The notes beneath the pieces were generated by a model, which saw only the letters and a list, made by a program, of their open reading frames with translations, was not told the DNA's origin and ran no database searches. The translations under genes and the position numbers were made by a program. Positions 15,123-50,347 of a DNA stretch of 64,000 bases are shown piece by piece (position 1 is the stretch's first letter; every line of letters starts with the position of its first letter). The DNA lies in the NCBI RefSeq assembly GCF_055900595.2, contig NZ_CM148325.1. One strand, 5' to 3'.

Positions 15123-15878
15123 TTAACGCAAAATCTCACACTGATGATCCTGGATTTCCTCGGCTGAAGCACGGTTCAGCGTCAGTAGATTTCGTTGTGT
15201 CGCCAGCAACACAAACGAATTATCACTCTGCCGCACCATCGCCAGCCCGTAGCTTCCCATATGTTCCCGCGCCTCAGGCACTTCTTCTGCAAGCATCATA
15301 AATGGGCTGCGTTGTACCAGTTCGCTTTCCGTTACCCGACGCGCCAGGTATTCATGCCCGTGCAAACCACCTGGCAGTGGCAACCAGCGGCTGCTGATGT
15401 TCGCCAGATTGTTATCCAGCTGTTCGCGCACATCAGGACGAATACAAGAGATATGAATATGAAAATGGTTTTGCGTACGCCCGGTGCGAGAGTTGATCGC
15501 CAAAGAAACCGCGCGATCGGGAACCGGCTGGCCGTATTTTTTGCTCATAAAATCACGCGCCTGCCAGGCCAACCAAAAGAAGTTCGGCGTTGAAGGATCG
15601 GTCAACAAAGGACTTTCAGTACCGTTAATACGATACGTTGGCATCAACAGATATTGCAGTGGGCCATTAAGATCTTTTAAAACCACGTATCCGGCATTAG
15701 GTTTGACTTCCGCACATGGCGAAGGATTTTGATTTTGCTGCTGATTGGGCAAACATTCCTCAAGGACAATCTTACGTAATGTATCCGACTCTTCACCGGT
15801 TAATTTCCAGTAACCAATACCGGCAGCCACAACGGCGATAACTATCATCACCAAAAAAAGAAGACCCGCTTTTTTCAT
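15123..15878 (-). CDS. cdh: CDP-diacylglycerol pyrophosphatase Cdh
   Basis: Internal ATG at 15878 gives [48 protein letters not shown]... (251 aa); ORF track extends 64 codons upstream. Confidence 0.92.
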
Positions 15879-17139: not shown

Positions 17140-17245
17140 GCCATATGCGGCGCGAACGCCTTATACGGCCTACAAAAGTTTGCAAATTCAATAAATTGCA
17201 GAATTCATGTAGGCCTGGTAAGCGAAGCGCATCAGGCATTTTGCT
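17140..17245. repeat. REP elements
   Basis: GCGGCGCGAACGCCTTATACGGCCTAC and GTAGGCCTGGTAAGCGAAGCGCATCAGGCA motifs. Confidence 0.6.
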
Positions 17246-22211: not shown

Positions 22212-22300
<89 letters not shown>

Positions 22301-25281: not shown

Positions 25282-26316
25282 ATGAGTAACGCGATTACGA
25301 TGGGGATATTTTGGCATTTGATCGGCGCGGCCAGTGCAGCCTGTTTTTACGCGCCGTTCAAAAAAGTAAAGAAATGGTCATGGGAAACCATGTGGTCAGT
25401 CGGTGGGATTGTTTCGTGGATTATTCTGCCGTGGGCCATCAGCGCCCTGTTACTACCGAATTTCTGGGCGTATTACAGCTCGTTTAGTCTCTCTACGCTG
25501 CTGCCTGTTTTTCTGTTCGGCGCTATGTGGGGGATCGGTAATATCAACTACGGCCTGACCATGCGTTATCTCGGCATGTCGATGGGAATTGGCATCGCCA
25601 TTGGCATTACGTTGATTGTCGGTACGCTGATGACGCCAATTATCAACGGCAATTTCGATGTTCTGATTAATACCGAAGGCGGACGCATGACGTTGCTCGG
25701 CGTTCTGGTGGCGCTGATTGGCGTAGGGATTGTAACTCGCGCCGGGCAGTTGAAAGAGCGCAAGATGGGCATAAAAGCCGAAGAGTTCAACCTGAAAAAA
25801 GGGCTGGTGCTGGCGGTGATGTGCGGCATTTTCTCTGCCGGGATGTCCTTTGCGATGAGCGCCGCAAAACCGATGCATGAAGCAGCTGCCGCACTGGGCG
25901 TCGATCCACTGTATGTCGCTCTGCCAAGCTATGTTGTCATCATGGGAGGCGGCGCGATCATCAACCTCGGTTTCTGCTTCATTCGTCTGGCAAAAGTGAA
26001 GGATTTGTCGCTAAAAGCCGACTTTTCACTGGCAAAACCGCTGATCATTCACAACGTGTTACTCTCGGCACTGGGCGGTTTGATGTGGTATCTGCAATTC
26101 TTTTTCTATGCCTGGGGCCACGCCCGCATTCCGGCGCAGTATGACTACATCAGCTGGATGCTGCATATGAGCTTCTATGTATTGTGCGGCGGTATCGTCG
26201 GGCTGGTGCTGAAAGAGTGGAACAATGCAGGTCGCCGTCCGGTAACGGTGTTGAGCCTCGGTTGTGTGGTGATTATTGTCGCCGCCAACATCGTCGGCAT
26301 GGGCATGGCGAATTAA
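25282..26316 (+). CDS. rhaT: L-rhamnose-proton symporter RhaT
   Basis: [51 protein letters not shown]... 344 aa, polytopic. Confidence 0.95.
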
Positions 26317-40264: not shown

Positions 40265-42571
40265 CTACATCCCGTAGCGTTCAGCAATAGCAGCATGCTT
40301 CTCTTCATTCGCCCCGGCTTCTTTGGCGAGACGCCACCAGCACAATGGATGTTCCCAGTCAGCGGTCAATTCGTGCAAGGTCTTATCGATATCACCTTTA
40401 GAAATTGAACGCGGCGCACTGATAACAAAGTAGAATGCAGGCAGCGGTTCAGCGCCTTCTCCTTGATGACTGTCCGTTAATGTATAGTCGTCATTACTGT
40501 TGCTCCAGTAGTACCAGTTTCGTTCACGGAGCGCCTCACGGAAAGTATTAAACTCTTCTTCACCAGGCATGACACCTTCGCAGAACCAGGACTCGCCGTA
40601 TTCGGTCGGGATAATGGTTTGCAGGCAGGCATAAAGTGGCGTGAAATTCTTCCGTTCTTCCTCATCCTCTGGTTGGGTATTCAACATTTCTGCATCGAAT
40701 ACCACAACCTCATCAACATGTTGCGGATAATCGGTGCGGTAAGTTGGCTCAATGATCCTTGCTGTTACCGGCCCAATACGTTGAGCATAGTAATAGCGGT
40801 ATTCATAATTTTCCCGGAAGCGGATGTTTAACAGCCCCCATTTTTCGTCAATAAAACCTTCACCTTCCGTAAGTTCGATTTCCAGTTCAGCAGCAATAGC
40901 ACGAACCAAATCCCATTGTTGCAGGATGCTGGCGGTCGCCATGATATCCCACTGGAGATTGCGAATATCTTCTTCACGGCTAATCATCAGTTGCTGCAAT
41001 TGTTGTAAATAATCCAGCTGTCGATCCCAGGCTTCCTGTTTTTGTGCTGCCCAGGAGCACATGCGATAAACGCCAACCCACTCACGCCCTTTTTCGTGTT
41101 GCAGCAACTGTTGCCCAATCGACTCCAGTTCACTCCAGTCTTCCTGTTGGTTGATCACTCGCGCACGGAACCACAAGGCCATATGTAGCAGCCCCGCCTG
41201 TTCATACTGCTTCGCCAGGTGCTCAATGGTTTGCAGATCGTCACGGTGGAGCAATAAATCCAACAGATCGAAGCAAAGACCATTATCTTCCTGGATGTGG
41301 CTTTCGACGTAGCGTTGCAGAAGTTCAATCGACTCATCAATCGCATTACAGGCGTTTAACGCATTGACCAGTTTGCCCAGCAATTCCGCATCATCTGGCG
41401 CGTTCAGGTAAGCGCGGCGGAATGTTTCGACGTCTTTTTCTGGATCTGGTTGCGTTTCTTCATCGCTATTTTCAGGTACTTCTACAACCGGACGAGCAAG
41501 CAACTCTGCTTCTTTGGCGGCGATTTTTTCACTCAGTTCGAGAAACTCACGATCAACCCCCAGTAACACGCGTAATTTTGGAATGTGTCGCTGGGCCAGT
41601 TTCATCGCTATTTTGGCAACCCAGACGGATTCACGCTCCAGCGCCAGGGTAATTTGCAGTTTCGCCAGATTCACCACTTTACGGTGCGCGCCGGCCTGCG
41701 AACGATGCTCCAGCATTTTTTGGATAATGCGCGCCAGCTGCCAGTTGTTTCTTTGTGGATGGCGAGGCAGTAGCGCAGTGATGATCTTGATCCAAATCCC
41801 CCACGAAAAAGGCGTAAGATCAGCCCAGCGCGGCAACTCAGCCCATACGTCTTCGTCCTGTCCACACAACGCCATGATATACAGTTTTTTCAACTGATAA
41901 CTGATACGGTCGCGCCCCCAGTAATCATTTTCTTCTGCCAGTTCATCAATCAATTTGCGTGCTTCATCGTAACGCTGCAGTTCAATCAAAATATCGGCAC
42001 GGGTATTCAATAATGCTTCAATATCATCGTCACCGGATGCTTTAACCGCGTCGATTTGCCGATCCAGGTACGCCAATGCCTCTTCTGCTCTTTTGGAATC
42101 TATCAGTGCGCTGGCATATTCGGTGGACAAACACTGAAAACAGCTCCAGGTTGCATCAATTCGCGCAATGGTTTCTTCACATACTGCCATGCGTTCATTC
42201 GCCCAGCCAGGCGCATCAATATTTTCGTAGCAGGCAGATAAATCCTGGGTAACGCAGATAGATTGCGGGCAATCTTTTGCCTCTTCCCGGTGTGCTTTTT
42301 CAAACAGCGCCACCACGTCTGGCAGCACTTTTTCGCCTTCTTCGCGGTTAGTCAGACGATGGCGCATTTCCCAGTGACCAATAAAAATCTCCAGCCAGGG
42401 ATTTTTCGCCACCTGGGTAAGCGCTTTTACTTCTGGTAATAGCGAATCGCATTTTTCCATTTGCAGGTGCATAACGCTTTCCGAATAATCATCAATAAGC
42501 TGCGGAATATACTCCTGTCCGGCATCGCGTAATTCCTGACTATATTTATTGTACCATTCCCATATATTCAT
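40265..42571 (-). CDS. Hypothetical 768-aa, predominantly helical, acidic protein; second gene of the HtpG-paralog operon; no motif recognised
   Basis: ATG at 42571 with AAGGA RBS, one nucleotide after the stop of the upstream HSP90-like gene (translational coupling). No Walker A, nuclease or protease motif seen by eye. Confidence 0.7.
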   Translation of the reverse strand: MNIWEWYNKYSQELRDAGQEYIPQLIDDYSESVMHLQMEKCDSLLPEVKALTQVAKNPWLEIFIGHWEMRHRLTNREEGEKVLPDVVALFEKAHREEAKDCPQSICVTQDLSACYENIDAPGWANERMAVCEETIARIDATWSCFQCLSTEYASALIDSKRAEEALAYLDRQIDAVKASGDDDIEALLNTRADILIELQRYDEARKLIDELAEENDYWGRDRISYQLKKLYIMALCGQDEDVWAELPRWADLTPFSWGIWIKIITALLPRHPQRNNWQLARIIQKMLEHRSQAGAHRKVVNLAKLQITLALERESVWVAKIAMKLAQRHIPKLRVLLGVDREFLELSEKIAAKEAELLARPVVEVPENSDEETQPDPEKDVETFRRAYLNAPDDAELLGKLVNALNACNAIDESIELLQRYVESHIQEDNGLCFDLLDLLLHRDDLQTIEHLAKQYEQAGLLHMALWFRARVINQQEDWSELESIGQQLLQHEKGREWVGVYRMCSWAAQKQEAWDRQLDYLQQLQQLMISREEDIRNLQWDIMATASILQQWDLVRAIAAELEIELTEGEGFIDEKWGLLNIRFRENYEYRYYYAQRIGPVTARIIEPTYRTDYPQHVDEVVVFDAEMLNTQPEDEEERKNFTPLYACLQTIIPTEYGESWFCEGVMPGEEEFNTFREALRERNWYYWSNSNDDYTLTDSHQGEGAEPLPAFYFVISAPRSISKGDIDKTLHELTADWEHPLCWWRLAKEAGANEEKHAAIAERYGM

Positions 42572-42572
42572 T

Positions 42573-44408
42573 TTATTTTCCTTGATTAATTAAGACAGGA
42601 ATAACCTGAGTAAAATCTTCCAGTGCCTGGTGTAAATCCCACTGCTGTTCTTTATTACCGCTGGAGCACAAAATCACTTTCAGCGATTTTAATAACCGTA
42701 ATGCTGCCGCTGGCTGTTGATGGTGTTGTAATGCCGTCACCAGTTGCATGACACAGGGGTTATTAAGATTGATATACAGACTTGAAGTTTTAGTCTTTTG
42801 GATTTGCGAGGTAAATTGCCGCGCCAGCATTAACGCTGCGGTGCTGATGCGTTTATCTGCGTCATCCTGTTCGAGAATTTGTTTTAATTCTGCTTCGCGG
42901 TCTGGCGTAACCACTAACGGTAAAACGGCGGGTTCGAAGCGGGAGATAATTAATTGCTCGCCATCGCAAAGATGCTCTTCCAGATAAGCAACCTGCTCTT
43001 CGGGTAATTCTGCCAGGCTGAACAACTGCTCATTACCCGTTTGCGTACCGACTTCGATAATCCGGCAGTGATATAACAGCGCCCAACGACGTAAAAATGG
43101 CACCACCGCATAACGATCGCCACGGGCTACGGGCCGTTGCAGAATATGAAACAACATCTCTTCAAAACCGCCGTCGCGGCTTAACAGAATATGAATACTG
43201 TTATTAACGCGTAAATCCTTCGCCAGCAGCGCACCTTTTGACGTTGGCACCTGCAGGCGATCTTTGAGTAAATCACACAGACGATCATCACACAAGGCCG
43301 CACCCAGCAACGCTTCGTTGTGGCGCATTAATACACGCCGCCAGATTTCTGGCTGATTTTGTGCGAGATCGGACAAACCAGAAATCAGCGCCTCTTTTAA
43401 CGCCTCCTGCACCGCAACCCAGGTTTCGTCCCGCTGGAGATCTTCCCGGCTCGCCGTAGGCGTTAGTTTCGATGACTCAATCACGCCGCCAATAAATCCG
43501 GCCCAGGGAGGTAACAACTCACGCGCTTCATCATCCAGTAACATACCGCGCAAAAACAGCGACAGGTTACGGTTATCGCTGGTGCCGTAGGTTGCGCCAT
43601 CCTGAATCCATAAAATCCCAACCGCGTCGCTCATCCCCACGGGCACCACCGGAATGGTGCAAATCGGTTCGAAGGAGGATTCAAACTGTGCGGCAAAGGC
43701 GAGATTTTTACGCTGTACCAGCGCGCGGTGCATGGTTACGCCTTCAGGGGCAACTTCACGCCACGGTGGTTGCAGTTTATTCACCGGCTCGCGGGCATCA
43801 CCGACATAGACTGGTTCGTGCAGCAATATGCAATAGCGTGAAAGAACGCGGTTCAGCAAATTGTTACTCGCCAGATGGCTGTACTCTTCTTTGAGCGTCA
43901 GAATCACCTGCGTACCCGTTTCCGAGGACTGATGCGGCGTAACGGTATATTTTTGCCCGTCGGTAGAGTGGTATTTCCAGCTCTGATCCGGCGTTTGCCA
44001 GGATGTGGTCAACACCGTGACCTCTTTTGCCAGTACAAAGGCCGACAAAAAACCGAGGCCGAACATACCAATTAAACCGGTGTTGTCATCCTGCTGGCGC
44101 AACATTCGGGTATAACCCACGCCCACTGTAGCAAGGAAGCCGTGAATTTCGCTTTCTGTCAGACCCGCACCGGTATCAGTAATAGTGATAGTGGACTTCG
44201 CCACGTCAGCCACCACACGAATTTGGTTATCCTTTGGCGCATCGGGCTGCTCAATCCTGCGACGCACAATCGCATCATGGCCGTTCTGCACCAGCTCGCG
44301 CACGGCAACTACGGGAGTGGAGTAAAGATGCTTACTAAGCACCTCAATTAAACCGTTTAAATTAACTTCTGTAGAATATGAACTGCCAGGTAACTGTAAT
44401 GTACTCAT
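42573..44408 (-). CDS. HSP90/HtpG-family GHKL ATPase paralog (611 aa), divergent from housekeeping HtpG
   Basis: Bergerat-fold motifs present: N-box RELVQNGHDA (codons at ~44271-44300), G1 ITDTGAGLT, G2 GMFGLGFLSAFVLAKEVTV (compare HtpG GQFGVGFYSAFIVADKVTV); middle-domain similarity GMLLDDEARELLPPWAGFIGGVIESSKLTPTASREDLQRD (compare HtpG [39 protein letters not shown]). Confidence 0.8.
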   Translation of the reverse strand: MSTLQLPGSSYSTEVNLNGLIEVLSKHLYSTPVVAVRELVQNGHDAIVRRRIEQPDAPKDNQIRVVADVAKSTITITDTGAGLTESEIHGFLATVGVGYTRMLRQQDDNTGLIGMFGLGFLSAFVLAKEVTVLTTSWQTPDQSWKYHSTDGQKYTVTPHQSSETGTQVILTLKEEYSHLASNNLLNRVLSRYCILLHEPVYVGDAREPVNKLQPPWREVAPEGVTMHRALVQRKNLAFAAQFESSFEPICTIPVVPVGMSDAVGILWIQDGATYGTSDNRNLSLFLRGMLLDDEARELLPPWAGFIGGVIESSKLTPTASREDLQRDETWVAVQEALKEALISGLSDLAQNQPEIWRRVLMRHNEALLGAALCDDRLCDLLKDRLQVPTSKGALLAKDLRVNNSIHILLSRDGGFEEMLFHILQRPVARGDRYAVVPFLRRWALLYHCRIIEVGTQTGNEQLFSLAELPEEQVAYLEEHLCDGEQLIISRFEPAVLPLVVTPDREAELKQILEQDDADKRISTAALMLARQFTSQIQKTKTSSLYINLNNPCVMQLVTALQHHQQPAAALRLLKSLKVILCSSGNKEQQWDLHQALEDFTQVIPVLINQGK

Positions 44409-44719: not shown

Positions 44720-45556
44720 TTAATTATGAATCAATCGCTGCGGATGAGTATAAACCGTTGCCCGACCCGGCTTACAAAAGCCCACCAGCGTCAAATTACA
44801 ACGCTCAGCCACTTCTACGGCAAGCGTGGTCGCGGCAGACACCGCAAACAAAATCTCGACGCCGCACATCGCTGACTTTTGCACCATTTCATAACTGGCA
44901 CGACTGGAAACCAGCACCGCACCTTGCAGCCAGCTTTCCCCTTCTTGTGACCGGCGGCCTAACAGTTTATCCAGCGCCACATGGCGACCCACGTCTTCAT
45001 GCCCGCCTACCAGTTCGCCAGATGGCAACATCCAGGCAGCGGCGTGAGTACAACCAGTCAGTTGCCCCACTGGCTGGAAATCATTGAGATGGCGTAATGC
45101 ATCATCCAGTTTGTTGAGATCAAATGTCTGAGTGAACGGCAGCGACTGCACCGGTTTACCGATGTCATTAAGTTGCTCCACGCCGCACACGCCACATCCC
45201 GTACGTCCCGCCAGTGCCCGACGACGCTCCTTCAACCCCATAAAGCGGCGGCTGGAAAGCTCAATTTGCACTTCCAGACCATTACAGGAAGGAACGACAT
45301 CCATACCGAAGATATCGCGCGGACTTTCGATAATCCCCTCGGAAAGCGAAAAACCGAGCGCAAAGTATTCAAGGTCTTTGGGCGACGCCATCATCACCAC
45401 ATGCGAAATGCCGTTGTAGACCAGCGCAACGGGAACCTCTTCCGCCACCTCATCTAACCGTGGGTGTTGTAAATCGTCACGCCGCCATAACTCAATTTGA
45501 CGAACACCTGTGACATTTGTCACATTTTTGATTTCTTTTTGCTGTGTTTTTTTCAC
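44720..45556 (-). CDS. fdhD: Formate dehydrogenase accessory sulfurtransferase FdhD
   Basis: [59 protein letters not shown]... 278 aa. Confidence 0.93.
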
Positions 45557-45749
45557 TTTCTATTAACCGGATAAGAACACACACACCAACATTATGGTAT
45601 TCTGTTACAAACCCTTCCTGGATGGAGGGAAATTGAGCCAATTCTGGACCTTTGCGGCCCCTTCCGCAAAGAAAAATAACTCCCACTCCCTGCACACGCA
45701 GCAAGCGAATGTAAATGGGACGTGACAATGTCGAAACAAGGAGCAATCC

Positions 45750-48700
45750 ATGCAGGTCAGCAGAAGGCAGTTCTTTAAGATCTGCGCTGGCGGTATGGCA
45801 GGCACCACGGCAGCGGCACTGGGTTTTGCACCCAGCGTAGCACTCGCGGAAACCCGGCAGTATAAACTGCTGCGCACCCGCGAAACCCGTAATACCTGCA
45901 CCTATTGTTCCGTAGGCTGTGGGCTGTTGATGTACAGCCTCGGTGACGGAGCAAAAAACGCCAAAGCATCTATCTTCCATATCGAAGGTGACCCGGATCA
46001 CCCGGTCAACCGCGGTGCACTTTGTCCGAAAGGCGCTGGCCTGGTGGATTTCATCCACTCCGAAAGCCGTCTGAAGTTTCCGGAATACCGTGCGCCAGGT
46101 TCTGATAAATGGCAGCAAATCAGTTGGGAAGAGGCGTTTGATCGCATTGCCAAACTGATGAAAGAAGACCGCGATGCTAACTACATTGCGCAAAACGCCG
46201 AAGGCGTGACTGTTAACCGCTGGCTCTCCACCGGGATGTTGTGTGCTTCCGCGTCGAGTAACGAAACCGGCTATTTAACGCAAAAATTCTCCCGCGCGCT
46301 GGGTATGCTCGCGGTCGACAACCAGGCGCGTGTCTGACACGGACCAACGGTAGCAAGTCTTGCTCCAACATTTGGTCGCGGTGCGATGACCAACCACTGG
46401 GTCGACATCAAGAACGCCAACCTCGTCGTGGTGATGGGCGGTAACGCCGCTGAAGCACACCCGGTCGGGTTCCGCTGGGCGATGGAAGCCAAAATTCACA
46501 ACGGCGCGAAGCTGATTGTGATCGATCCTCGCTTTACGCGTACGGCGGCGGTGGCTGACTACTATGCCCCTATTCGTTCCGGTACTGACATTGCTTTCCT
46601 GTCAGGCGTATTGCTGTACCTGCTGAACAATGAAAAATTCAACCGCGAATACACCGAAGCCTATACCAACGCCAGCCTGATCGTGCGTGAGGATTACGGC
46701 TTTGAAGATGGCCTGTTCACCGGCTACGACGCGGAAAAACGCAAGTACGATAAATCCTCCTGGACCTACGAGCTGGACGAAAACGGCTTCGCCAAACGCG
46801 ATACCACGCTGCAACATCCGCGCTGCGTGTGGAACTTGCTGAAACAGCACGTTTCCCGTTATACGCCAGATGTGGTTGAAAACATCTGTGGTACGCCGAA
46901 AGACGCGTTCCTGAAAGTCTGCGAATACATCGCCGAAACCAGTGCTCACGATAAAACTGCCTCGTTCCTTTACGCGCTCGGCTGGACGCAACACTCCGTT
47001 GGTGCGCAAAACATTCGAACGATGGCGATGATCCAGCTGCTGCTCGGCAATATGGGGATGGCAGGCGGCGGCGTTAACGCCCTGCGCGGTCACTCCAACA
47101 TTCAGGGGCTGACGGACCTGGGGCTGCTGTCGCAGAGCCTGCCAGGTTACATGACGCTGCCAAGCGAGAAGCAGACCGATCTGCAAACCTACCTTGCCGC
47201 CAACACGCCGAAACCGCTGCTGGAAGGCCAGGTTAACTACTGGGGCAATTACCCGAAATTCTTCGTCTCCATGATGAAGGCCTTCTTTGGTGATAAAGCG
47301 ACGGCAGAAAACAGCTGGGGCTTTGACTGGTTGCCGAAGTGGGATAAAGGCTACGACGTCCTGCAATACTTCGAGATGATGAAAGAGGGCAAGGTCAATG
47401 GCTATATCTGCCAGGGCTTTAACCCTGTTGCCTCATTCCCGAACAAAAACAAAGTGATCGGTTGTCTGTCGAAACTGAAGTTCCTCGTCACTATCGACCC
47501 GCTGAACACTGAAACCTCTAACTTCTGGCAGAACCACGGTGAGCTGAACGAAGTGGACTCGTCGAAGATCCAGACCGAAGTGTTCCGTCTGCCATCGACC
47601 TGCTTCGCGGAAGAGAATGGTTCAATCGTTAACTCCGGTCGCTGGTTGCAGTGGCACTGGAAAGGTGCGGACGCCCCGGGGATTGCGCTGACTGATGGCG
47701 AGATCCTCTCCGGTATCTTCCTGCGCTTGCGCAAGATGTACGCCGAACAGGGTGGCGCGAACCCGGACCAGGTGCTGAACATGACCTGGAACTACGCCAT
47801 CCCGCATGAGCCGAAGTCGGAAGAAGTGGCGATGGAGAGCAACGGTAAGGCGCTGGCCGATATTACCGATCCGGCAACCGGGGCGGTTATCGTCAAGAAA
47901 GGCCAACAACTTAGCTCGTTCGCACAACTGCGCGATGACGGTACCACCTCCTGTGGCTGCTGGATTTTCGCCGGTAGCTGGACGCCAGAGGGCAACCAGA
48001 TGGCGCGCCGTGATAACGCCGATCCGTCTGGCCTCGGTAACACGCTGGGCTGGGCATGGGCATGGCCGCTTAACCGCCGCATTCTGTATAACCGCGCCTC
48101 CGCAGATCCGCAGGGTAACCCGTGGGATCCGAAGCGTCAGTTGCTGAAATGGGACGGCACCAAATGGACCGGCTGGGATATTCCGGACTACAGCGCAGCG
48201 CCTCCGGGCAGTGGCGTCGGGCCGTTTATCATGCAGCAGGAAGGCATGGGGCGTCTGTTTGCCCTCGATAAGATGGCGGAAGGTCCGTTCCCGGAACACT
48301 ACGAGCCGTTTGAAACGCCGCTGGGAACTAACCCACTGCATCCAAACGTTATCTCGAACCCGGCTGCACGTATCTTTAAAGACGACGCCGAAGCATTGGG
48401 TAAAGCCGATAAGTTCCCGTATGTCGGAACCACCTATCGTCTGACCGAGCACTTCCACTACTGGACCAAACACGCGCTGTTGAATGCGATTTTGCAGCCA
48501 GAGCAGTTTGTGGAAATCGGTGAGTCGCTGGCGAATAAACTTGGCATTGCTCAGGGCGATACCGTGAAAGTCTCCTCCAACCGTGGCTATATCAAAGCCA
48601 AAGCGGTGGTGACCAAACGTATTCGCACGCTGAAAGCGAATGGCAAAGATATCGATACCATCGGTATTCCGATTCACTGGGGCTATGAAGGTGTTGCGAA

Positions 48701-48800
48701 AAAAGGCTTTATTGCCAATACGTTAACGCCATTCGTTGGTGATGCGAACACGCAGACGCCGGAGTTTAAGTCCTTCCTTGTGAATGTGGAAAAGGTGTAA
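45750..48800 (+). CDS. fdoG: Formate dehydrogenase-O catalytic subunit FdoG (selenoprotein; in-frame UGA at 46335-46337 decoded as Sec; Tat signal)
   Basis: MQVSRRQFFKICAGGMAGTTAAALG (twin-arginine) ... the ORF track shows two same-frame ORFs (45750..46337 and 46386..48800) separated only by a TGA; Mo-bisPGD family. Confidence 0.93.
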
Positions 48801-48812
48801 CGGAGACGACAT

Positions 48813-49715
48813 ATGGCTTATCAATCTCAAGATATCATTCGTCGTTCCGCGACTAACGGTCTGACCCCCGCGCCTCAGGCGCGGGACTTCCAGGAAGAAG
48901 TGGCGAAACTCATCGACGTCACCACCTGTATCGGCTGTAAAGCCTGTCAGGTGGCGTGTTCAGAGTGGAACGACATTCGCGATACCGTCGGCAATAACAT
49001 TGGGGTGTACGACAACCCCAATGATTTAAGCGCCAAATCGTGGACGGTGATGCGCTTCTCGGAAGTGGAGCAGAACGACAAACTGGAATGGCTGATCCGT
49101 AAAGACGGCTGTATGCACTGTTCCGATCCAGGCTGCCTGAAAGCGTGTCCGGCGGAAGGGGCAATTATTCAGTATGCCAACGGTATCGTCGACTTCCAGT
49201 CCGAGCAGTGCATTGGTTGCGGTTATTGCATTGCGGGCTGTCCGTTCGACATTCCGCGCCTCAACCCGGAAGACAACCGCGTTTATAAATGTACGCTGTG
49301 CGTTGACCGCGTGGTGGTTGGGCAAGAACCGGCCTGTGTGAAAACCTGCCCGACGGGTGCGATTCACTTCGGTACGAAAGAGTCGATGAAAACGCTGGCG
49401 AACGAGCGCGTGGCGGAGCTGAAAACCCGTGGTTACGACAATGCGGGTCTGTACGATCCGGCAGGCGTGGGTGGTACACACGTTATGTACGTGCTGCACC
49501 ATGCTGACAAGCCGAATCTGTATCATGGCTTGCCGGAGAACCCGGAAATCAGCGAAACCGTGAAATTCTGGAAAGGCATCTGGAAACCGCTCGCAGCTGT
49601 TGGCTTTGCGGCTACCTTCGCGGCCAGTATCTTCCACTACGTGGGTGTCGGTCCGAACCGTGCGGATGAGGAAGAGAATAATCTGCACGAAGAGAAAGAC
49701 GAGGAGCGCAAATGA
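48813..49715 (+). CDS. fdoH: Formate dehydrogenase-O iron-sulfur subunit FdoH
   Basis: [53 protein letters not shown]..., four Cys clusters, C-terminal TM helix. Confidence 0.96.
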
Positions 49716-50347
49716 AACGACGTGACACCATCGTGCGCTACACCGCGCCGGAACGTATCAACCACTGGATCACCGCCTTCTGCTTCATCCTGGCGGCGGT
49801 GAGCGGGCTGGGCTTTTTGTTCCCTTCCTTCAACTGGTTGATGCAAATCATGGGCACACCGCAGCTGGCGCGCATTCTGCACCCGTTTGTCGGCGTGGTT
49901 ATGTTTGCCTCGTTCATCATCATGTTTTTCCGTTACTGGCATCACAACCTAATCAATCGGGATGATATCTTTTGGGCGAAGAATATTCGTAAGATCGTCG
50001 TCAACGAGGAAGTAGGTGACACCGGGCGTTATAACTTCGGTCAGAAATGCGTTTTCTGGGCGGCGATTATTTTCCTGGTCCTGCTGCTGGTGAGCGGTGT
50101 GATTATCTGGCGTCCTTATTTTGCGCCTGCTTTCTCAATCCCGGTGATCCGATTCGCGTTAATGCTGCATTCATTTGCCGCAGTGGCGTTAATTGTGGTT
50201 ATCATGGTGCATATCTACGCCGCCCTTTGGGTGAAAGGCACGATTACCGCCATGGTGGAAGGATGGGTTACCAGCGCCTGGGCGAAGAAACATCACCCGC
50301 GCTGGTACCGTGAGGTCCGCAAGACAACGGAAAAGAAAGCTGAATGA
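49712..50347 (+). CDS. fdoI: Formate dehydrogenase-O cytochrome b556 subunit FdoI
   Basis: [38 protein letters not shown]... 211 aa, four TM helices. Confidence 0.95.

Follow-up and report, generated by a model that had tools for sequence, protein, structure and literature searches.

The window, a stretch of 64,000 nucleotides (NCBI RefSeq assembly GCF_055900595.2, contig NZ_CM148325.1), is part of an Escherichia coli chromosome and shows 99.96% identity to NZ_CP098223.1 over all 64,000 bases, with 21 mismatches and two single-base indels. It carries the genes for the three subunits of formate dehydrogenase-O (FDH-O) followed by the accessory gene fdhE, with fdhD lying divergently upstream of fdoG (Table 1), and this gene order is the layout of the K-12 fdo locus. 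A 3.5-kb query around the in-frame TGA of fdoG matched all but one of 5426 complete E. coli genomes (5425). The predicted FdoG protein begins with a twin-arginine signal (SRRQFFK, residues 4–10) and contains Fe4S4, molybdopterin and MGD-binding domains (Pfam PF04879, PF00384 and PF01568). In the RefSeq annotation of near-identical genomes, the gene is a single 3051-nt CDS that runs through the TGA. A match to the FdoG-1 5′-UTR thermometer was also noted around the start of the gene (45581–45779), with a sub-threshold score of 32 bits (threshold, 50 bits).

Table 1. Features of the fdo locus and its surroundings, with positions counted from the first base of the window.
Feature	Position	Strand	Basis or remark
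TPR protein, gene of the insertion	40265–42571	−	
HSP90-family GHKL ATPase, gene of the insertion	42573–44408	−	
fdhD, formate dehydrogenase accessory sulfurtransferase (divergent)	44720–45556	−	TIGR00129, 335 bits; annotation
fdoG, catalytic alpha subunit of FDH-O	45750–48800	+	1016 codons including Sec196; one RefSeq CDS of equal span
Full bacterial SECIS (UGA, lower helix, apical hairpin and 3′ flank)	46332–46390	+	Rfam SECIS_3
UGA codon 196, almost certainly read as selenocysteine, the active-site molybdenum ligand	46335–46337	+	Alignment to 1KQF; mass spectrometry in PMC3636253
SECIS lower helix (46338–46347 with 46372–46380)	46338–46380	+	Register ambiguous in this sequence
Apical SECIS mini-hairpin GG-U-AGCAA-GUC-UUGCU-CC, presumed SelB-binding part	46349–46366	+	Folds; Rfam structure line
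fdoH, iron–sulphur beta subunit of FDH-O	48813–49715	+	TIGR01582, 479 bits; annotated fdoH
fdoI, cytochrome b556 gamma subunit of FDH-O	49712–50347	+	NF007924, 453 bits; annotated fdoI
fdhE, formate dehydrogenase accessory protein	50344–51273	+	NF002925, 603 bits; annotation

PGAP calls this CDS "fdnG / formate dehydrogenase-N subunit alpha", which would make it the gene for the catalytic subunit of the paralogous enzyme FDH-N. FDH-N is the nitrate-inducible, anaerobic enzyme, and FDH-O is the constitutive isoenzyme that is expressed with oxygen present. This naming can draw on the fact that TIGR01553, the model for the FDH-N alpha subunit, is the only NCBIfam equivalog model matching the protein, and on a SECIS element that is identical in both paralogues. 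However, the product has 99.8% amino acid identity to K-12 FdoG (b3894) and only 77.0% to FdnG (21.8% to FdhF), and fdoI scores 453 bits against the FDH-O cytochrome b556 model compared with 244 bits against the FDH-N gamma model. Furthermore, fdoH, fdoI and fdhE downstream and the divergent fdhD reproduce the K-12 fdo arrangement, and a second copy with approximately 75% identity, which is the real fdnG, is found elsewhere in E. coli genomes. An identity as fdnG is therefore extremely improbable; fdoG is the correct name, and the PGAP label is an imprecision at the level of paralogues. The name fdoG given in the earlier note was upheld by the identity to FdoG and the fdo synteny, and its warning that the gene is easy to mis-annotate was apt, as the paralogue's name on this CDS illustrates.

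The reading frame from 45750 to 48800 ends with TAA, and its sole internal stop is the TGA at codon 196. In the program-made ORF list, this one frame appears as two ORFs, 45750..46337 (195 aa, ending with the TGA) and 46386..48800 (804 aa); the gap up to 46386 is produced by the ORF lister, which opens a new ORF only at the following ATG. Given that there is a single internal stop in the frame, the TGA alone parts the two ORFs, just as the earlier note had described, down to the coordinates. The TIGR01553 profile leads to the same position, since its matches are contiguous, with profile positions 1–194 before the TGA and 196–1009 after it, and the one residue left between the two halves places the TGA exactly there. 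In K-12, an in-frame TGA likewise occurs exactly once in each of three formate dehydrogenase genes (fdoG codon 196, fdnG codon 196 and fdhF codon 140).

A search of solved structures, with Cys in the query at the selenocysteine position, aligned codon 196 with the non-standard residue X196 of the FdnG structure 1KQF, and the context VDNQARV-X-HGPTVASLAPTFGRGAMTNHW was identical in the window protein and 1KQF. Using mass spectrometry, Zorn et al. detected the peptide VU196HGPTVASLAPTFGR in purified Fdh-O and Fdh-N, in which Cys was never found at position 196, and reported that a selC mutant translates fdnG and fdoG only as far as codon 196 (PMC3636253). The window encodes exactly this peptide. 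The structural alignment and the mass spectrometry thus bear out the proposal that the TGA is the selenocysteine codon of FDH-O.

The sequence surrounding the TGA matched the Rfam family SECIS_3 (RF01989) at 46332–46390 over the full length of the model (1–59 of 59), scoring 84.3 bits where the gathering score is 63 bits (E 1.8e-19). The related family SECIS_2 (RF01988) reached only 28.1 bits against its threshold of 70. When the U of UGA is numbered nt 1 (window coordinate = 46334 + n), the spacer between the UGA and the apical hairpin, CACGGACCAAC, comprises 11 nt (nt 4–14), and the hairpin reads G15 G16 [U17] A18 G19 C20 A21 A22 / G23 U24 C25 / U26 U27 G28 C29 U30 C31 C32. All constructs folded with ViennaRNA formed this apical hairpin, with U17 (46351) bulged in all folds and G23 (46357) and U24 (46358) located in the loop. 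The SECIS of E. coli has three hallmarks, namely an upper stem-loop positioned 11 nt from the UGA, a bulged U17 and a loop containing G23 and U24, and SelB is contacted by U17 and G23 (PMC8659212). All three hallmarks are present in fdoG, at the distances found in fdhF. Below the apical hairpin the picture was less sharp: the lower helix in the Rfam register contains two non-Watson-Crick oppositions (A-G and A-C), the ViennaRNA minimum free energy fold moves the register by one nucleotide and includes a bulged G, and the weak covariation in this helix gives no clear preference for one register. The expected SECIS hairpin directly 3′ of the TGA was accordingly confirmed by both the SECIS_3 score and the folds, and the span 46335–46400 to which the earlier note had drawn attention takes in the whole element.

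Folding of 46338..46390, which had been proposed as a check, gave a divided result in that the hairpin did form, but its energy was statistically not distinctive. The free energies of 46335–46385 (51 nt) and 46338–46390 (53 nt) were not below those of shuffled sequences (z −0.76 and −0.42, respectively), whereas two shorter constructs, a core of 43 nt and the apical hairpin of 18 nt, gave z values of about −2.1. The fdhF SECIS is the experimentally validated and biochemically dissected prototype of these elements, and in the same shuffle test it yielded a z of +0.26. Free energy was therefore discarded as a SECIS criterion in both directions. Because the energy is uninformative, the case for a more-than-chance structure rests on the covariance-model score and on covariation.

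To examine covariation, one genome per species was scanned with the pattern TGACAYGGNCCNACNGTNGCNWSNYTNGCNCC, in which the peptide U-H-G-P-T-V-A-(S)-L-A-P is fixed and third codon positions are free. The scan yielded at least 120 stretches with 121 sites, and together with the window's own site these gave 57 distinct 48-mers among the matches listed. They originated from Enterobacterales, Pasteurellaceae, Pseudomonas, Burkholderiales, Rhizobiales, Thiobacillus and a relative of Geobacter, so that the 57 distinct sites listed span Gamma-, Beta- and Alphaproteobacteria in addition to the Geobacter relative. The two variable pairs of the apical helix, 18-30 (Val/Ala codons) and 21-27 (Ala/Leu codons), join third codon positions on both sides. 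Among the matches listed, pair 18-30 was GC in 36 of the 57 distinct sites, AU in 14, GU in six and CG in one, and pair 21-27 was AU in 34, CG in 16 and GC in seven; no broken case of either pair occurred among these 57 sites. Variation is thus confined to two of the seven apical pairs, each of which shows double changes (38 cells), although the sites are phylogenetically non-independent and the other five pairs are fixed, or nearly so, by the search pattern. All cells were paired (100%), compared with 30%–55% for slid partners, and none of 500 shuffles reached the observed pairing or covariation score.

Positions that remained constant were equally informative. Among the matches listed, nt 15, the last base of the Thr codon and the partner of C32, was G in 57 of 57 sites, and the Ser codon was AGU in 57 of 57, even though the pattern allowed AGC and TCN. 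Since Ser is always encoded by AGU, G23 and U24 are preserved, and U17, G23 and U24 were all invariant (57 of 57 among the matches listed) despite a degeneracy that permits change at nt 23–24. In contrast, the third positions of the adjoining Gly, Pro and second Thr codons were freely variable. These patterns bear on the alternative that 46338–46400 is conserved by protein constraint alone, with HGPTVASLAPTFGRGAMTNHW as an active-site peptide and the hairpin as an incidental by-product. That the peptide is identical in FdoG and FdnG and close to those in Desulfovibrio FDH structures would fit such a reading, as would a fold energy no better than that of shuffles. Protein constraint alone, however, does not account for a Thr codon held at ACG and a Ser codon held at AGU next to free third positions, or for two third-position pairs that co-vary without a broken pair among the matches listed, and we regard it as having a negligible chance of being correct. 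Taken together, the comparison of sequences clearly indicates that the constraint on 46338–46400 goes beyond the protein sequence.

A further argument for constraint on the RNA as well as on the protein is provided by the two paralogues within E. coli. Although fdoG and fdnG have only 75.3% nucleotide identity overall, their longest identical run extends over 71 nt (46332–46402), covering the UGA and the SECIS, and the next longest is 37 nt; identity of this extent between paralogues so diverged is more than amino acid conservation alone could produce. Constraint on the protein and the RNA together is enough to account for it. Upkeep of the identical stretch by recurrent gene conversion, or an extra role of the element such as SelB titration or Sec-dependent regulation, is an unlikely addition, although, if it were true, purifying selection on a combined coding and RNA signal would not be the whole explanation.

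With the SECIS established, it can be asked whether fdoG might nevertheless be a pseudogene, in which the TGA acts as a real stop that leaves a 195-aa fragment and the remainder is either untranslated or restarted at the ATG at 46386. The split in the ORF list would be expected under such a reading, and UGA is normally a stop codon at which, even in selenocysteine contexts, release factor 2 (RF2) competes (PMC4513850). The TGA, however, is shared with K-12 fdoG, fdnG and fdhF, and an 86-nt query over the element hit 5425 of the 5426 E. coli genomes, at a median of two places per genome and with at least 99% identity in 5321 of 5433 records. Moreover, the 820 codons after the TGA are intact and 99.8% identical to those of functional FdoG, an above-threshold Rfam SECIS follows the codon, and Sec196 has been detected by mass spectrometry in FdoG (PMC3636253). 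A nonsense mutation is therefore hardly conceivable here, and the same four lines of evidence (the universal TGA, the intact codons, the SECIS and the detection of Sec196) vindicate the earlier judgement that the gene is not a pseudogene.

The most consistent explanation is that the TGA at 46335–46337 is codon 196 of fdoG and is recoded as selenocysteine through the downstream SECIS, a reading that we consider almost certain. Within the 64-kb window, none of the sel genes and no tRNA gene of any kind were found, and the annotation of a near-identical strain likewise shows none there. With the K-12 genes as queries, selA-selB and selD were each detected in 5425 of 5426 complete E. coli genomes and selC (tRNA-Sec) in 5424, and this species-wide prevalence strongly implies that selA, selB, selC and selD are present in the source strain. 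From the literature, we infer that selenocysteine is actually incorporated, and the element bound by SelB, in this strain as well.

The proposed sequence of events would begin as the ribosome nears the UGA, when the mRNA at 46338–46380 is expected to fold into the SECIS stem-loop. The apical hairpin would then be bound by the C-terminal domain of SelB, carrying GTP and Sec-tRNA(Sec). The SelB-GTP-Sec-tRNA(Sec) complex holds the apical SECIS via the C-terminal winged-helix domain of SelB (PMC8124441, PMC4513850, PMC8659212). The Sec-tRNA(Sec) would stem from selC, whose product receives serine and is then converted by SelA with selenophosphate that SelD supplies. SelB could thereby compete with RF2 to bring selenocysteine into the A site. 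In the finished enzyme, which is predicted to be exported by the Tat system and to face the periplasm, Sec196 would ligate the molybdenum of the bis-MGD cofactor.

The selenocysteine codon and SECIS of fdoG are already known and constitute a textbook case of bacterial recoding, and we agree with the description of the feature as known biology, given that the same Sec196 codon and SECIS occur in K-12 fdoG. At least the 57 nt after the UGA have the same bases in the window, K-12 fdoG and K-12 fdnG, and the proposed comparison of the element with those of fdnG and fdhF accordingly found identity with the former and agreement with the latter in spacing, U17, G23 and U24. The fdnG copy thus shares the UGA and SECIS in full, and its Sec196 is resolved in 1KQF. 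The fdhF SECIS consists of the UGA followed by CACGGCCCAUC and GGUUGCAGGUCUGCACC; fdoG has in common with it the 11-nt spacer, the bulged U17 and the distances to G23-U24 in the loop, and the first 11 nt after the UGA (CACGGnCCAnC) are nearly alike in both. The apical stems differ, with 4 bp above the bulge, a GGUC loop and a 17-nt mini-hairpin in fdhF but 5 bp, a GUC loop and 18 nt in fdoG. The fdhF element encodes HGPSVAGLHQ at Sec140 of a cytoplasmic enzyme that is 22% identical to FdoG.

The practical value of the present analysis lies solely in annotation quality, in that ORF callers treating TGA as a stop would produce two fdoG fragments or a pseudogene. The covariation at synonymous sites exemplifies RNA structure inside a coding sequence and confirms the content of the Rfam family.

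Compared with the window, K-12 fdoG (b3894) is the same gene with the same codon number for selenocysteine and the same operon context; the two differ at 62 of 3051 nucleotides (99.8% amino acid identity), and there are no nucleotide differences over fdoG nt 541–701. The one local difference between the strains lies upstream of the fdo locus, where two genes are inserted between yiiG and fdhD; this insertion is missing from K-12 and was found in only 254 of 5426 E. coli genomes. Elsewhere in the window, matches to REP-type elements (naRNA4 and ES036) and to a ClpQY promoter element were observed, and a transposase with a truncated ORF lies at 52978–54792. Finally, the closest reference strain has yihT, rhaT and cdh flagged as pseudogenes, but all three genes are intact in the window.

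The longest identical nucleotide run between fdoG in the window and K-12 fdnG, which encodes the alpha subunit of formate dehydrogenase-N, was 71 nt (46332-46402), in an overall identity of 75.3%; the second-longest run was 37 nt. The 71-nt run falls exactly on the selenocysteine codon (UGA) and the SECIS hairpin element immediately 3' of it, a position that fits an overlapping constraint on protein and RNA, while gene conversion between the paralogues may also have produced this local identity. In identical genomes, RefSeq/PGAP called the CDS at 45750-48800 'fdnG, formate dehydrogenase-N subunit alpha', whereas this CDS, adjoining fdoH and fdoI, is the fdoG orthologue. This paralogue-naming imprecision is systematic and stems from the single NCBIfam equivalog model, TIGR01553. 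Upstream, the Rfam model of the FdoG-1 5' UTR thermometer (RF02778) gave a sub-threshold match over the 5' UTR and start region of fdoG (45581-45779, +; 32 bits, where the gathering score is 50; E 5e-5), with good alignment in the 3' half, containing the ribosome-binding site and start codon, and poor alignment in the 5' half.

The interval between fdhD and yiiG in the window holds two additional genes that K-12 lacks. The encoded ATPase scored 288 bits against NF010683, under the cutoff of 455, and PADLOC returned weak matches to TmtA N-termini; no family match was found for the accompanying TPR protein. Among 5426 complete E. coli genomes, only 254 carry the insertion, in most cases at 90-95% identity; it could represent a candidate accessory or defence-like module. 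Between yiiE and fabY, neither the transposase gene nor the adjoining truncated ORF matched any NCBIfam model, and the region they span (52978-54792) is probably what remains of an inserted IS element.

The ORFs of cdh, rhaT and yihT are intact in the window, whereas the annotation of NZ_CP098223.1, the closest reference strain at 99.96% identity, marks all three as pseudogenes with a frameshift or an internal stop. The two single-base indels between these sequences fall at ca. 13029 and ca. 15309, the latter within cdh. The remaining Rfam matches, all over the gathering score, are ordinary for E. coli.

Features located in the window
Feature	Position	Strand	Description
cdh	15124-15878		intact ORF
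rhaT	25282-26316		intact ORF
yihT	60994-61872		intact ORF
HSP90-family/GHKL ATPase	within 40265-44408	-	611 aa; HATPase_c_3 and HSP90 Pfam domains
TPR protein	within 40265-44408	-	768 aa
Transposase gene	52978-53892	-	yiiE-fabY interval
Hypothetical ORF	53905-54792	-	C-terminally truncated; adjoins transposase gene
ClpQY (hslVU) promoter element	2439-2496		Rfam
ES036/CssrF	17175-17216, 51477-51519		Rfam
naRNA4/CssrE	22220-22297		Rfam; REP-derived
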